Assembly: GCA_002434805.1 (NCBI GenBank)
Contig: DJKW01000004.1
Location: forward strand, 11,936-75,935
Source: Patescibacteria group bacterium UBA6532
GTDB lineage: Bacteria; Patescibacteriota; Minisyncoccia; Minisyncoccales; UBA6532
Length of the DNA stretch: 64,000 nt
Reading direction: 5' to 3'
A program made the translations under genes and the position numbers. Numbering within the stretch: position 1 is the stretch's first letter; every line of letters starts with the position of its first letter. The notes under the pieces are model-generated. The model made no database searches and was not told where the DNA came from. It was given only the letters and a program-made list of their open reading frames with translations. This document shows positions 26,226 through 34,313 of this stretch, one piece after another.

Positions 26226-27743
26226 TTACTTGCCAAGAATTTCATTGAGCTTGTCTCTAGTAGTAGATCCTACTAAACCGGTTCCCGAGGTTAATCCATA
26301 AGTAGCTAAAACATCAGCAGCATATTTCTCTTGGAATTTAACTACAGCAGCATTGGTTAAAGAACCAAAGTATGTAGTTTCATTGCTTAAAGAACCTACG
26401 CCGGATGCAGCAACCTGTGTGTTAGAGTCTGAGTTTAAGACGATCTGAAGGTACATTACCTCGTTATCGCTCATTCCCTGTTTAAGAGTATTCTCAAAAG
26501 TAAAACCAACTGGAACACCAGTAATGGTGCCTGTAGCTTCTGTTCCTGTCGAACCGCCCATATCAGATAATTGAGCTTGCAAAGTTGCTAATTGTGCCAT
26601 TAAGGCATTAATTTGAGCTCGAAGCTCTGATACTGTTATTTCAACGATAACTGATTCCTCAACAACAGGCTCTTCAACTGAAACCTCAGCTACGGTCATT
26701 AACTCAGCTAATTCTGAAAAAGCAGTTTCCTTTCCGTCTCCATTTCTCGCTTTTACTCTAAATGTATATTCTGTTCCAGCAACTAGATATAAAGAAGTCC
26801 AAGAATTTTCCTTAATCCAACCAGAATTAGTTCCTGTAGTGTAATTCTCAAAGTAAAGTCCAGTTGAATTAGGAACTAAATTAGTAGGAACGCCAACTGC
26901 TTTAACCTTAACGCTAGTTTTAGTTGCCTCTGCTTTTTCTACCAAAGTAGGAACTGCAACTAATGTATAAATTTCAGAAAAAATTTCCTGAGCTTTGGTT
27001 GCTCCCCTATCATTGAAAGCATAAACTCTTCTACCAGAATATTTTGTATTTCCTTCCAAGCCTGTTTCGTCAAGATAAGAAAGATTAGCTGTTTGACTTT
27101 CTGCTACTGTTTTTAAAGAAGAATCTAAAATTCTAAAGCCAAACTCATTATTAGTTAAATCCAAAAAATGCCACCTTATGGTTGAAGTAGAAATTGCCTC
27201 TCCGTTTTTGACAAATGGAGGAAGAGGTATAGTAGGAACATTAGCTCCTACCACTATTTTTCTCTCAAGACCCAAAAGATCAAGATCTGTAGGCCCTTTG
27301 TTGCCGGAAGTGAACTCAACAGAGTTAATAGCAATCTTTGGCTTAACAGTGCTTCCTGAAGCCATGCTACTGCTAATGTCTGCTGTTACAAAAATTCTTT
27401 GCTTTGAAAAGCTGCCGGAAATTACTTTTTCAAAAAAAGGATAAATAGTAATAATCGCGACTTCTCTTTCGTCACCGTCCCAGCCAGCTGAAGAACCGTC
27501 TTCGTAGACTACTAATTTTGAGATATATGACTGGATAAGAACTCCGGCGTTGCGAAGCGTTATTGAACTTGGAACTTCAGGAAGAGTTAAATCCAGAATT
27601 AAAACTTGGCTGGTGCCGGGAGGAACATCATAAATCGGCTGGTTGTTAACTTTGAAATCCTCTGCCAAAAAACCAAAAGCAGCCAGTGGAAATAATAAAA
27701 GAATTACAAAAAAGGTAATTATTGAAAAAACAGTTTGCCTCAT
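26226..27743 (-). CDS. Secreted or anchored surface protein: FN3-like domains plus C-terminal coiled coil and peptidoglycan-binding (PG_binding_1-like) domain
   Basis: Start moved to the Met of MRQTVFSIITFFVILLLFPLAAFG (signal/TM). The track extension 27744-27827 is encoded by terminator hairpins. FN3-like strings (TEYTFRVKARNGDGKETAFS). The C-terminus [19 protein letters not shown]...YLQIVLN...[16 protein letters not shown] is PG-binding-like. Confidence 0.75.
   Translation of the reverse strand: MRQTVFSIITFFVILLLFPLAAFGFLAEDFKVNNQPIYDVPPGTSQVLILDLTLPEVPSSITLRNAGVLIQSYISKLVVYEDGSSAGWDGDEREVAIITIYPFFEKVISGSFSKQRIFVTADISSSMASGSTVKPKIAINSVEFTSGNKGPTDLDLLGLERKIVVGANVPTIPLPPFVKNGEAISTSTIRWHFLDLTNNEFGFRILDSSLKTVAESQTANLSYLDETGLEGNTKYSGRRVYAFNDRGATKAQEIFSEIYTLVAVPTLVEKAEATKTSVKVKAVGVPTNLVPNSTGLYFENYTTGTNSGWIKENSWTSLYLVAGTEYTFRVKARNGDGKETAFSELAELMTVAEVSVEEPVVEESVIVEITVSELRAQINALMAQLATLQAQLSDMGGSTGTEATGTITGVPVGFTFENTLKQGMSDNEVMYLQIVLNSDSNTQVAASGVGSLSNETTYFGSLTNAAVVKFQEKYAADVLATYGLTSGTGLVGSTTRDKLNEILGK
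26277..26625 (-). repeat. Copy A of a dispersed ~350-nt coding repeat (coiled coil + PG-binding module)
   Basis: Aligns to 31808-32156. The core 26287-26384 is identical to 31819-31916 (98/98 nt by direct comparison), and further 30-31-nt identical blocks follow. Confidence 0.9.
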
Positions 27744-27754
27744 TATTCTATTAT

Positions 27755-27784
27755 AACAAAAGACGCCTGGAAAACCAGGCGTCT
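27755..27784 (-). terminator. Intrinsic terminator (second of a tandem pair after the giant gene)
   Basis: 10-bp perfect stem agacgcctgg/ccaggcgtct (27761-27770 / 27775-27784), 4-nt loop, TTTGTT on the minus strand. Confidence 0.8.
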
Positions 27785-27800
27785 TTCTATCTCTGATAAG

Positions 27801-27824
27801 GAAAAAGCCCCAATAGGTGGGGCT
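27801..27824 (-). terminator. Intrinsic terminator (first after the giant gene)
   Basis: 7-bp stem agcccca/tggggct (27806-27812 / 27818-27824), 5-nt loop, followed by TTTTT on the minus strand. Confidence 0.75.
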
Positions 27825-27860
27825 CATTCCCTGCTCACAAGGAAAGCAAAATACTAATAC

Positions 27861-32255: not shown

Positions 32256-32396
32256 TTTAATTAATTTTAATTGAATTTAATTTATTTAATTATAATTTCT
32301 AACGTCGCTATCGACCCTCCTATCATCTTTTGAGTGGTAATAATTATTTAGACGGACTAGTCCAACACTCAAAAAACGACGGACAACGACTATTTT

Positions 32397-33134
32397 TTAA
32401 TTAATATTTTGTAAAAGCAGAATGTTTATTAGAGCTTGAGAATAATCTCCTGCTTCATTGTCTTCCTGGGCTCTTAATAAAAATTCCTGCTGGCCTTCGG
32501 TTAAAGTTCTATCCTCTAAATACCTGATTTCTCTTTCCACTAGCTGGGCTAAGGCACTATCGTATTCATCTGTATCTCCAAGCACTATTCCTAATGCTTC
32601 TACCTTTTTCTTATTTTCATCTAATTTCTGGGTTTCTGAAACAATTTCCTGAATAATAATTGGGGCAGAAGAAGTGGTAGCTTCCATTTGAGTCAAGTTT
32701 TTTGCGGCTTCAGAAATGCTTATCTGGAATTCCCTAATGGTCGGGGCAAGATTTTCCACCTGGTTAGATGTAGCGATCTTATCCAATTCTTCTAATCTCT
32801 TATTGGCTATCTCAAGATGAATTTTAGTTTTTTGGTTTTCTGGAGAAAGAGTAACCTGGGCGCTTTCGGTCATTTTCTTAACTGAATAGAGAAAATCGCC
32901 AGGAACAGTAGACTGGGCAAAACCAAAGGTTAATCCAAAAATTACCATAAAGAGCAAAACCGGCGTTGCAAAAGCTGGCTTCCATTTAAGTAAAAGCACA
33001 TCCATTATTGAAACACTTTCTGGCTGATAACTCTCTTTTCCCAGGATCTGTTTTTTAGTTAAAACAACCCAGTTTTCTCTGGGTTTGATCTGACGAAGTT
33101 CCTTTAAATTTTTAATAATGTCGTTCTCGATCAT
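32397..33134 (-). CDS. Single-pass membrane protein, anti-sigma-factor-like (DUF5667-like)
   Basis: 245 aa, TM PAFATPVLLFMVIFGLTFGFA, followed by PGDFLYSVKKMTESAQV...IHLEIANKRLEEL. Lies directly downstream of the ECF sigma gene. Confidence 0.55.
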   Translation of the reverse strand: MIENDIIKNLKELRQIKPRENWVVLTKKQILGKESYQPESVSIMDVLLLKWKPAFATPVLLFMVIFGLTFGFAQSTVPGDFLYSVKKMTESAQVTLSPENQKTKIHLEIANKRLEELDKIATSNQVENLAPTIREFQISISEAAKNLTQMEATTSSAPIIIQEIVSETQKLDENKKKVEALGIVLGDTDEYDSALAQLVEREIRYLEDRTLTEGQQEFLLRAQEDNEAGDYSQALINILLLQNIN

Positions 33135-33168
33135 CTCTATTAATTATGACGGAAAAAGAGGGATTTTA

Positions 33169-33672
33169 TTACACCCTCTCTAATTTAGCTTTAAGGGCTT
33201 TCATAGCCCGATGAATGGTCACTCTTACTGCTTCCTCTGACTTATTAAGCATTTTAGCTATTTCTGGTACAGAAAGATCGTCTATATAGCGCCAGACAAT
33301 AACTTCTTGATATTCTTCTTTTATCTTAACCAAGGCTTCTTTTACTTGTTCAAAATCAGATGTCAGCATAGCTTTCTCCTCTAAACTAGTATCGGGATTA
33401 GCTATGGAAGCGTATTCAACCGATACAAATTGGGCTTGTCCTTTCTCTCTATAATGATCAGTGGTTAAATTACGGGCGATTTGATAAAGAAAAGCTTGAA
33501 TATTCTTAATTTCCTTTTTTTGGCTCTTAAAAGCCTGCCAGCCGCGTAAAAAAGCCTCTGAAGTCAAATCTTCAGCTATTTCAGGAGAATTAACCTTTAA
33601 AAAGATAAATCTATAGATCTTGTCTATATATTTATCGTAAATGTCACTAAAAGCTTTTTGAGATTTATCCAT
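33169..33672 (-). CDS. ECF-type sigma-70 family RNA polymerase sigma factor
   Basis: 167 aa. Region 2 (IYRFIFLKV...AEDLTSEAFLRGW) and region 4 (DLSVPEIAKMLNKSEEAVRVTIHRAMKALK). Confidence 0.85.
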   Translation of the reverse strand: MDKSQKAFSDIYDKYIDKIYRFIFLKVNSPEIAEDLTSEAFLRGWQAFKSQKKEIKNIQAFLYQIARNLTTDHYREKGQAQFVSVEYASIANPDTSLEEKAMLTSDFEQVKEALVKIKEEYQEVIVWRYIDDLSVPEIAKMLNKSEEAVRVTIHRAMKALKAKLERV

Positions 33673-33737
33673 TGTAATAAATTAAGAAAACGCGACAATT
33701 AACCTAGAAATGCGACATATACATATATTATATATGT

Positions 33738-34313
33738 CTATGTCCTATTTATAGCATAGTAACAGGTACCCCGGCCATTGCCTTTTCTTTCCATTGATCC
33801 TACCTGAACCAAGCTTTCAAGATCTCGAAGCAGAGTCCGTCTGTTCAGTTGAGGGAAAACTTTGAGCAAATCGCCTACTTTCACCTTTCCGCTTCCATTG
33901 GAAATATTTAAAATCTTTTCCTTTCTTAAACCAGAATTAATCCTATTATTACTAGCACTCCTATCTTCTTGTTTTCTAATACCAAATTCTGGTGACAGAA
34001 GCTTGCTTTTCAATTCTTGAGATATCTTATCATACTCTTTCTTTAAAACCAAGAAGTTCTGGGGATTTATCCGTTGAGAAGATTCAGCTGAGTCAAAATA
34101 GCTGGTTAACTTAGCTATTTCTTTTAAAATTTGTGGGGTAATGCTTTCTCTCTGAGAAAAGCTTAATATTGGATTTCCATAAGAAAGCAAAATAAGGCCA
34201 GCTAAAATATTCTTGGCTGACTCCTCAATTCTTTGTTTTGTCTCTTTTTCTGGTAAAAGTTCCAAGACCCTAAAAAGAGCAAAAGTAAGTTTTATATATT
34301 GGTCTTTGTCCAT
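33738..34313 (-). CDS. Putative DNA-binding protein with C-terminal winged-helix/DeoR-like HTH
   Basis: C-terminus VGDLLKVFPQLNRRTLLRDLESLVQVGSMERKGNGRGTCY; helical N-terminal half. Confidence 0.5.
   Translation of the reverse strand: MDKDQYIKLTFALFRVLELLPEKETKQRIEESAKNILAGLILLSYGNPILSFSQRESITPQILKEIAKLTSYFDSAESSQRINPQNFLVLKKEYDKISQELKSKLLSPEFGIRKQEDRSASNNRINSGLRKEKILNISNGSGKVKVGDLLKVFPQLNRRTLLRDLESLVQVGSMERKGNGRGTCYYAINRT

Follow-up and report, generated by a model that had tools for sequence, protein, structure and literature searches.

An extracytoplasmic function sigma factor cassette and a structured leader RNA upstream of a probable surface-layer gene in Patescibacteria

How is the synthesis of a cell coat controlled in bacteria that possess very few regulators? 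The Patescibacteria, or candidate phyla radiation (CPR), account for a large part of the diversity of bacteria, and the envelope plays a central role in their epibiotic lifestyle, and yet to our knowledge almost nothing is known of regulation in these organisms. The question is raised by a stretch of 64,000 nucleotides (nt) from Patescibacteria group bacterium UBA6532 (contig DJKW01000004.1 of assembly GCA_002434805.1, positions 11,936 to 75,935), referred to here as the window, in which five genes follow one another head to tail on the minus strand between 26226 and 34313. They encode a winged-helix regulator, an extracytoplasmic function (ECF) sigma factor, a membrane protein of the DUF5667 family, a secreted protein of 1464 amino acids (its gene is called the surface gene below) and a secreted partner of 505 amino acids. 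An earlier note on this DNA had read the five co-oriented frames, all of which we find on the minus strand where it placed them, as a self-regulated surface-layer module. Based on gene order, sequence motifs and predicted structures we consider it probable, with moderate confidence, that this is a surface-layer gene module equipped with a dedicated regulatory cassette that operates as proposed below.

The arrangement recurs in many relatives. The 1464-residue protein has over 40 homologues that match it in full length, at 42-53% identity, and many others at about 30%. A scan of one genome per species returned at least 547 stretches encoding a relative of it, and 80 species-level genome loci were classified. 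In 63 of these the sigma factor and DUF5667 genes lie directly upstream of the surface gene, nine loci carry a partial cassette (four of them the regulator only), six have none of it and two were not judgeable. Seven homologues, from 53% down to 31% identity, were looked up in their context and all seven showed the order HTH_DeoR (a weak match), sigma factor, DUF5667 protein and surface protein. Starting from DUF5667 alone, three look-ups out of three led to the same order, the next gene encoding 621, 1164 or 1202 amino acids with the same N-terminal anchor module, indicating that the linkage on which the earlier note had staked its reading holds in both directions. A partner with a C-terminal anchor module is found downstream of the surface gene in at least 20 loci.

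The sigma factor (33169-33672, minus strand, 167 amino acids) is a short group 4 protein that consists of the sigma-2 and sigma-4 regions only (Pfam Sigma70_r2, E 2e-13; Sigma70_r4_2, E 2e-14) and exceeds the cut-off of TIGR02937 (97 against 42.9 bits), which bears out its original designation as an ECF sigma factor. Its best NCBIfam subfamily model is the BldN type (TIGR02952), although at 121.6 bits it stays below the cut-off of 206.45 and is not assigned to BldN, and its best matches in the Protein Data Bank (PDB) are SigW (5wuq, 9e-21) and sigma-BldN (6dxo, 6e-19). Promoters of ECF sigma factors, such as those of Bacillus subtilis SigW, SigX and SigM, are recognized by AAC in the -35 and CGT in the -10 element. 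Next to the sigma gene both hallmarks are present in the site TGTAAT-N16-CGTCATAAT (33143-33173, minus strand), the -35 element of which overlaps the sigma stop codon, while the CGTC ends 13 nt before the ATG of the DUF5667 gene. The consensus TGTAAY-N16-CGTC(ATAAT) precedes the DUF5667 gene at 70 of 70 loci, 63 times exactly and seven times with a one-base variant of the -10 element. The site is unique within the window, and 50 of the 53 strict sites in 1.19 Mb of loci stand directly before DUF5667; even at locus L007, where a gene has been inserted after the sigma gene, the motif stays with DUF5667. The remaining three lie upstream of a UDP-glucose-dehydrogenase/epimerase/deacetylase glycan operon beside the surface gene. 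These glycan-operon sites also read TGTAAT-N16-CGTCATAAT (L003, 13396-13421; L005, 13382-13407; L021, 10163-10188), and the glycan operon of the window has a sigma-70-type TTGACT-18-TATAAT (region 24939-25020) in place of the ECF-type promoter. We suggest that TGTAAY-N16-CGTC is the promoter that this sigma factor uses. Neither in the comparison of loci nor in the window was an ECF-type site found before the sigma gene or the surface gene, so that the motif expected by the earlier note to be shared upstream of 33672 and 32255 is missing there and stands instead upstream of 33134, the start of the DUF5667 gene; the ECF-type promoter maps inside the module and not elsewhere, as the earlier note would require of the sigma regulon.

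The DUF5667 gene (32397-33134, minus strand) begins 34 nt after the sigma gene and encodes a single-pass membrane protein of 245 amino acids (PF18915, E 1e-15). From its sequence we read a cytoplasmic N-terminus of about 32 residues, a transmembrane segment at residues 53-73 and an extracytoplasmic helical domain. The cytoplasmic N-terminus is the most conserved part, and the motif L..IKP..dWV..tK..IL within it is present in 61 sequences. A single-pass protein with its N-terminus inside, encoded directly downstream of a sigma factor in an order that is conserved in the relatives, has the position and topology of an anti-sigma factor, and on these grounds we propose that DUF5667 is a putative anti-sigma factor or sensor. 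The DUF5667 protein was met on 15 contigs, Tara among their sources. A search of the literature found no mention of DUF5667.

Between the DUF5667 gene and the surface gene lies a spacer of 141 nt (32256-32396), already taken for a leader in the earlier note, most of which folds into a structured RNA (32304-32390, minus strand; minimum free energy -31.8 kcal/mol, z -3.5). An outer helix, H1, pairs 32390-32382 with 32312-32304 and an inner stem pairs TTTTGAGTG with CACTCAAAA (32374-32366 and 32336-32328) around a small GC hairpin; the conserved GGGUCGA (32317-32311) is predicted to be largely unpaired beside H1, and about 50 nt rich in A and U separate the structure from the ATG. At the loci that share this type of leader the outer helix starts about 7-20 nt past the DUF5667 stop codon (about 7 nt in the window), closes about 50 nt before the ATG of the surface gene and encloses a second helix with the stem TTTTGARTR/YAYTCAAAA and a small GC hairpin, while the near-invariant GGUCGA, next to the outer helix, is at most partly paired. 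In an alignment of 17 sequences the 22 pairs of the structure are 89.5% paired, compared with 40-49% when partners are slid, and 12 of the pairs change on both sides, giving 41 compensatory cells as opposed to 15.4+-2.9 after shuffling, a value reached by none of 500 shuffles. Applied to 914 kb, a covariance model built from this alignment matches a given locus once, in every case immediately ahead of the surface gene; at E<1e-3 it finds 24 loci, of which seven were not in the seed, and it scores much higher on the sense strand, e.g., 98 bits as against 24 bits antisense. Of 69 leaders 66 contain GGTCGR, its density being 4.9 per kb compared with a background of 0.22 per kb. No Rfam family matches 32256-32399 at E<=1, and the leader is a structured, covarying RNA absent from Rfam.

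A second type of leader, assessed by eye and by regular expression, is carried by L003, L005, L009 and others (the Nealsonbacteria type). It keeps GGUCGA and an outer helix, GUCGCG/CGCGAC, and has an extra hairpin with the loop UAAUACGUAAG. Upstream of this leader stand a DnaA-box-like TTTTCCACA and a -10 element of the sigma-70 kind. In L058, L063 and L090 the leaders (~3840-3970) contain two tandem units, each consisting of a stem, AAGGUCGA and a 3' strand, whose stems differ entirely (GUCGCGG/CCGCGAC and AACCGUG/CACGGUU); the differing stems argue strongly, though informally, that the element functions as a hairpin in which GGUCGA is fixed. Other readings of the box and the leader were considered and rejected. 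As the -10 element of an ECF promoter GGTCGA lacks a conserved -35 at the right spacing; as a Shine-Dalgarno sequence or the start of an upstream open reading frame (ORF) it is ill placed, the distance to the ATG being 40-140 nt, and relatives do not conserve the phase of the short ORF found in the window leader; and a terminator or attenuator is contradicted by the lack of a U tract after the hairpin and of any terminator-like site in 32256-32396. Since six-base-pair helix matches anywhere upstream are expected by chance, they were set aside in favor of the pair count of the alignment and the covariance model.

The first gene of the module (33738-34313, minus strand) encodes 191 amino acids with a helical N-terminal domain and a C-terminal DeoR-like winged helix. 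HTH_DeoR is matched by 20 of 21 aligned orthologues (best E 3.8e-10), although the copy in the window itself has no Pfam match, and an RTLRRD...G motif is conserved in the alignment. The domain search found no DeoR C-terminal sensor domain; the N-terminal domain is faintly similar to the four-helix bAvd/23S-IVP proteins (PDB 2gsc, E 0.06), and one orthologue matches bAvd. Genes for 23S_rRNA_IVP/bAvd-like four-helix proteins also occur as insertions at L007, between the sigma and DUF5667 genes (5559-5912) and after the surface gene (11208-11573). At four more distant loci (L068, L069, L082 and L089) the regulator gene alone, with no sigma factor or DUF5667, lies directly upstream of the surface gene, and the regulator may thus have a link of its own to the surface gene. 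The best sigma-70-type match in the region, TTGACA-16-TAAAAT (34412-34439, minus strand; 11 of 12 consensus positions), is a candidate promoter of the regulator gene by consensus only. The gap between the regulator and sigma genes holds an array of GACA-type 7-mers (TAGGACAT, ATAGACAT, ATGTCGCAT and TTGTCGCG; 33691-33747, minus strand) around a TATAAT. Across loci this gap contains two to eight direct and inverted copies, TAGGACA-type 7-mers occupying the position of the array in 42 of 62 loci, and the variants follow lineage: GCGACA in the clade of the window, and GTGACA, ATGACA or CGGACA in others. As the variable bases shift with lineage, we read the array as the putative operator of the neighboring winged-helix protein.

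What is it that this cassette precedes? The surface gene (27861-32255, minus strand) encodes a secreted protein of 150 kDa with a pI of 4.7 and no cysteine, in which Thr, Ala, Gly and Ser account for 46% of the residues. Its sequence opens with an evident signal peptide (residues 1-30), a coiled coil (residues 33-58) and a three-helix, PG_binding_1-like domain that extends to residue 165 (anchor module, 31761-32162). A (GDT)n linker follows (31672-31756; a 9-nt tandem repeat of 9.4 copies), then six homologous immunoglobulin (Ig)-like modules (residues 200-1200; 28656-31658) and a distinct C-terminal region of about 260 residues (27864-28655). The modules of roughly 160 residues described in the earlier note proved to be six segments of about 150-185 residues, homologous at 97-99.6% probability in 14 of 15 pairwise hhalign comparisons. 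AlphaFold2 (AF2) models of the two halves as monomers (predicted local distance difference test, 84.6 and 84.0) depict a signal or transmembrane helix, a long helix at residues 33-58, a small helical domain up to residue 165, a disordered (GDT)n linker and beta-sandwiches only from there on. As regards peptidoglycan binding, some homologues pass the PG_binding_1 model and the AF2 model is helical in this region, but both window proteins remain below the Pfam cut-off of 23 bits, at 20.9 and 17.9. No SLH domain was matched in Pfam. The linker region is poorly conserved and gapped among homologues, and its length probably varies. An NCBI record from a Parcubacteria group bacterium, CMI54_01125 (1264 amino acids), is 100% identical over 86% of the ORF and 200 residues shorter; as annotated it starts past the signal peptide and lacks the coiled coil and the anchor domain as well, probably owing to the choice of a later start codon. 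We propose that the protein is exported through its Sec signal peptide, would be held at the wall by the N-terminal coiled coil and the PG_binding_1-like domain, and would display the six Ig-like modules and the C-terminal domain. Its acidity, lack of cysteine, richness in Thr, Ala, Gly and Ser, putative wall anchor and Ig-like array are features of surface-layer proteins, and it is the probable surface-layer protein of this Parcubacteria-group bacterium (CPR of the Paceibacteria type).

Proteins of this kind have been noticed before. A 2024 preprint predicted S-layer proteins of Patescibacteria that carry six Ig-like domains and assemble into hexagonal pyramids, with a lattice modelled by AF2-multimer (bioRxiv 10.1101/2024.05.28.596244), among them Nealsonbacteria A0A1G2EN61 (1131 amino acids, six Ig-like domains) and Yanofskybacteria GMX57981.1 (692 amino acids); Nealsonbacteria cells show an apparent S-layer by cryo-electron microscopy. 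The 692-residue protein is the one that lies behind the helix-turn-helix (HTH)-sigma-DUF5667 cassette (bioRxiv 10.1101/2024.05.28.596244, PMC10936435). In Candidatus Yanofskyibacterium, with the same gene order, transcript values of 10.4 for the HTH gene, 7.6 for the sigma factor, 12.5 for DUF5667 and 16.7 for the signal-peptide protein with a peptidoglycan-binding domain (PGBD), apparently on a log2 scale, were reported, and the latter protein ranked in the top five by expression among signal-peptide genes without a known function (mBio 2024, PMC10936435). A homologue has a signal-peptide score of 0.998 in the same study. The high expression assumed in the earlier note thus holds for the transcripts of a relative that carries the same cassette. 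Neither publication mentions a sigma factor or an operon, the preprint being silent on regulation, and our search for literature joining S-layer, CPR and sigma factor returned nothing relevant. Hence, of the view that identity and regulation of the S-layer protein are poorly described, the first half is superseded by the 2024 prediction, while the second appears to be valid: what appears to be new here is the regulation and not the identity.

In the window the outer helix of the leader is too near the DUF5667 stop codon to leave room for a promoter between them and no terminator intervenes, from which we conclude that the transcript probably runs on from DUF5667 into the surface gene. We propose the following sequence of events. 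The winged-helix protein, produced from its sigma-70-type promoter, would bind the GACA array around the sigma promoter and set the level of the sigma factor. The sigma factor would then read TGTAAT-N16-CGTC between its own gene and DUF5667, so that active sigma factor raises DUF5667 and not itself. As this promoter lies after the sigma gene, feedback would run through the partner only, unlike in textbook ECF operons, and a DUF5667 transcript well above that of the sigma factor, as was published, is what a promoter between the two genes would lead one to expect. In the window the transcript would continue through the structured leader into the surface gene, there being no terminator or convincing promoter in between. 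DUF5667 would probably hold the sigma factor at the membrane through its cytoplasmic N-terminus and sense the wall or the S-layer through its outer helical domain, resulting in negative feedback coupled to the output of surface protein. The leader hairpin with its GGUCGA would most likely protect or process the 5' end, allowing the surface mRNA to accumulate far above that of DUF5667. The suggestion of the earlier note that the pair may control the major surface protein, or sense its assembly, is favored by the conserved linkage and by the promoter inside the module, whereas the anti-sigma role and the control of the surface gene by the sigma factor are steps that we propose.

A number of observations weigh against this reading, and the rival explanations draw on them. 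The DUF5667 protein shows no anti-sigma domain (ASD, zf-HC2 or RskA) in Pfam or NCBIfam even at E<=10, no fusion to zf-HC2 or another anti-sigma domain was found among about 300 relatives, and no PDB relative was found, a profile search against the PDB returning coiled-coil designs only. Topology, the 34-nt spacing and position are therefore those of the membrane protein usually paired with a sigma factor, as the earlier note had it, but they come without a recognizable anti-sigma domain. In addition, the usual ECF layout, with a promoter upstream of the sigma gene and positive autoregulation, is absent. It is conceivable, although we find it doubtful, that DUF5667 is a structural or assembly factor, e.g., a membrane tether or a chaperone for the coiled-coil anchor, and that the sigma factor is controlled by the winged-helix protein only. 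Such a role would agree with the absence of an ASD, zinc-finger or RskA signature and with an outer domain that resembles coiled coils only, given the coiled coil beside the anchor in both surface proteins, and DUF5667 exceeds the sigma factor about 30-fold in the published data if these are log2 values. A purely extracytoplasmic role is, however, hard to fit to a protein whose most conserved part is its short cytoplasmic N-terminus; the place directly after an ECF sigma factor together with a single-pass, N-in topology is the classic anti-sigma pattern, and structurally novel anti-sigma factors do exist, an example being RsbN of sigma-BldN (PMC6101532).

Other points against an anti-sigma circuit that governs the surface gene concern transcription. 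Of the 80 loci 15 are without part or all of the cassette. In about one sixth of the relatives (L003, L005, L008, L009, L015, L021, L025, L032, L038, L043 and L055) the stretch from DUF5667 to the leader contains a DnaA-box-like motif as well as a sigma-70-like -10 element, indicating that there the surface gene can be transcribed without the ECF sigma factor and that control by the latter is not obligatory. The window leader contains a weak sigma-70-like match, TTGAGT-18-AATAAT (9 of 12 positions). The published surface gene lies about 4 units, apparently log2, above DUF5667, a gap that read-through alone would not bridge, so that a second promoter or a more stable mRNA is needed. We regard as unlikely the alternative built on these points, namely that sigma factor and DUF5667 form a general envelope-stress switch with DUF5667 as its sole direct target, and that the surface gene has its own housekeeping promoter and is merely adjacent, e.g., as DUF5667 is needed at the wall. 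The sigma-70-like promoters in the leaders of many relatives, the weak match in the window, the excess of surface transcript over DUF5667 and the lack of an ECF-type promoter directly before the surface gene are all compatible with it. Yet the outer helix of the window type begins about 7-20 nt after the DUF5667 stop codon and shows a covariation that, including its G-U pairs, is confined to the sense strand, which means that the RNA must start inside the DUF5667 gene or before it. That the genes stay adjacent in 63 of 80 loci and in three of three reverse look-ups, and that three relatives have an ECF-type promoter on the glycan operon, likewise does not fit a mere neighbor.

Two last points against concern the protein itself: among its best 50 Foldseek matches in the PDB there is no S-layer structure, only adhesin and integrin Ig-like arrays, and its likeness to the accessions of the preprint is one of architecture. 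That protein and partner are host-attachment adhesins or wall-bound 'extracellular enzymes' that form no lattice, the cassette tuning adhesion to the host, is how the authors of PMC10936435 read PGBD proteins (KEGG tag K21449, adhesin, in their table) and would suit the generic tandem Ig-like arrays found by Foldseek (PrgB, integrin legs, MSCRAMMs, AgI/II; 7-12% identity), but it is quite improbable in view of a length and sequence conserved across many lineages (42-53% identity, 100% length), which is unusual for fast-evolving adhesins, of the lack of any catalytic domain in our Pfam and NCBIfam search, of the S-layer-like composition, of the extremely high expression of its counterpart in a relative, and of the lattice predicted by AF2-multimer for such proteins and the S-layer on Nealsonbacteria cells.

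Returning to the surface-layer module with its dedicated cassette, the DnaA-box-like motifs may form a further layer. Upstream of the regulator gene lie two direct repeats of 27 nt (34446-34501, minus strand; Tandem Repeats Finder, period 27, 2.1 copies), each comprising a DnaA-box-like TGTGGAAAA (34463-34471 and 34490-34498; TTTTCCACA on the plus strand) and a TGTCC/TTCC-GGGA segment. TTTTCCACA occurs only three times in 64 kb, twice within these repeats. The eleven relatives listed above have such a motif (TTTTCCACA; in L038 a perfect TTATCCACA) just after the DUF5667 stop codon, directly upstream of the sigma-70-like -10 element of the surface gene, and overall these motifs are about 6-fold enriched in leaders over the background. 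A replication origin was rejected as the cause, as the cumulative GC skew makes no turn here and the 64 kb hold three boxes only; since the skew indicates no origin, DnaA may act instead as a transcription factor that couples coat synthesis to replication.

The downstream part of the module is marked off by terminators. The two tandem intrinsic terminators after the surface gene (27755-27825, minus strand), previously placed at 27801-27824 and 27755-27784, were both recovered by folding as GC-rich hairpins followed by a U run (27825-27805, -21.2 kcal/mol, z -4.5; 27784-27755, -22.7 kcal/mol, z -6.5), and a third, strong one with the same two features ends the module (26201-26171, minus strand, -22.6 kcal/mol). 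The partner gene was assigned a start at 27827, but an ORF from there would read through both terminators, and the ATG at 27743 is the most probable start (26226-27743, minus strand; MRQTVFSII..., 505 amino acids). An extended -10 promoter-like TGTTATAAT (27750-27758, minus strand), seen by reading the sequence, lies 6 nt before this ATG, and the partner mRNA may be leaderless. The partner consists of a signal peptide, beta domains including an fn3 domain (26712-26819) and a C-terminal coiled coil with a PG_binding_1-like module (26235-26636). This anchor module is 80.6% identical to that of the surface protein (residues 32-163; 31761-32162), as compared with 34-49% for the same two modules in other genomes and 55-59% in the closest clade, which suggests recent gene conversion between the two surface genes in this lineage.

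The surface gene also differs in composition, GC being 0.42-0.47 at 28-32 kb and about 0.33-0.37 in the rest of the window. The excess resides almost wholly at the second codon position (0.52 as opposed to 0.32; 0.35 and 0.30 at the third), indicating that it reflects amino-acid composition and not codon choice. By the likeness of its codon usage to that of ribosomal-protein genes the surface gene ranks 21 of 56, and the ribosomal-protein genes themselves are barely biased here, and this rank speaks neither for nor against high expression. The reading of the distinct composition as a sign of very high expression, made in the earlier note, does not hold.

Next to the module is a glycan and sugar-nucleotide cluster (20454-26157), with a GT4 gene on the plus strand and, on the minus strand, a UDP-glucose dehydrogenase-like gene, two epimerase/dehydratases, a polysaccharide deacetylase and a FemAB-like gene; such a cluster also follows the surface gene in L001, L003, L005 and L009. 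On the upstream side (34571-35059, 35268-35642, 35792-36562 and 36996-40464) we find genes for a Fic/DOC protein, a DUF6941 protein, a PP2C phosphatase, a trypsin-like protease and ClpB, and in L003 ClpB and the protease are likewise upstream of the cassette. Elsewhere in the window are a Cas4-like (DUF83) protein (42301-43035), a block of ribosomal-protein genes and RpoA (43063-46561) and a type IV pilin-like protein with an N-terminal methylation motif (53562-54062). Positions 11001-14000 have a markedly lower GC (0.28-0.30; 0.17-0.20 at third codon positions in three genes, 11368-13766) and may be a foreign or distinct island.

If the proposed circuit is correct, a function can be assigned to DUF5667. 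What is probably the most highly expressed gene of these organisms is linked to a conserved three-gene cassette, providing the first testable model of envelope control in these ultra-small bacteria together with cis-elements to test: a promoter consensus, an operator repeat and a covarying leader RNA of about 90 nt. A wider picture, which we offer tentatively and as speculation, is that of a phylum-wide homeostat of the cell coat, in which DUF5667 would represent an anti-sigma factor of a new class, its outer coiled-coil domain reading the coverage of the wall or S-layer; the sigma factor, once released, would transcribe its anti-sigma and S-layer genes as one unit (and the glycan operon too in some lineages), a new class of leader RNA with its GGUCGA would set the fate of the mRNA, and the circuit would be coupled to the cell cycle by the co-evolving winged-helix protein and operator and by the DnaA-box-like sites.

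How does this module compare with systems that are understood? The Gram-positive S-layer proteins SbsB, SbsC, Sap and EA1 have an N-terminal wall anchor, about six beta-sandwich domains, an acidic, cysteine-free composition, a long 5' untranslated region (UTR) and strong terminators. In these features the protein and gene described here resemble them, the wall anchor being a putative one. The anchor, however, is a coiled coil with a PG_binding_1-like domain in place of SLH domains, the sequences share no similarity, and SbsB, SbsC, Sap and EA1 do not appear among the best 50 Foldseek matches. The S-layer proteins of the preprint resemble it as secreted Ig-like arrays (six homologous modules here) that are very abundant across Patescibacterial classes, and a class of 1110-1310 residues exists among the homologues found here; the window protein is longer, at 1464 residues, and has the extra C-terminal region of about 260 residues.

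In operons of the papBA type, governed by differential mRNA stability, and in S-layer mRNAs with structured 5' UTRs, a minor and an abundant gene share a unit and a stable 5' hairpin precedes the abundant one. Here as well the gene for a regulator or minor product appears to share one unit with a structural gene that is presumably expressed very abundantly, with a hairpin in front of the latter; the leader differs in being a new motif with a conserved GGUCGA, for which processing or stabilization is a proposal of ours. With SigW/RsiW, SigX and SigM of B. subtilis the module shares the best PDB match of its sigma factor (SigW), the AAC and CGT elements with a 16-nt spacer and the gene for a single-pass membrane partner directly downstream, whereas those systems are autoregulated from a promoter upstream of the sigma gene and have anti-sigma factors with a zf-HC2 ASD, neither of which is seen here.

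Judged by such likenesses, the closest functional analogue is sigma-BldN/RsbN of Streptomyces, in which an ECF sigma factor drives the chaplin and rodlin coat genes and RsbN is a membrane anti-sigma factor unlike the known ones (PMC6101532). The two differ in that the sigma factor described here is below the cut-off of the BldN model, DUF5667 has no detectable similarity to PDB chains and the promoter lies between the genes for the sigma factor and its putative anti-sigma factor. Common to both would be an ECF sigma factor dedicated to a surface coat, and the BldN type is also the best subfamily model of the Patescibacterial sigma factor and 6dxo its second-best structural match.

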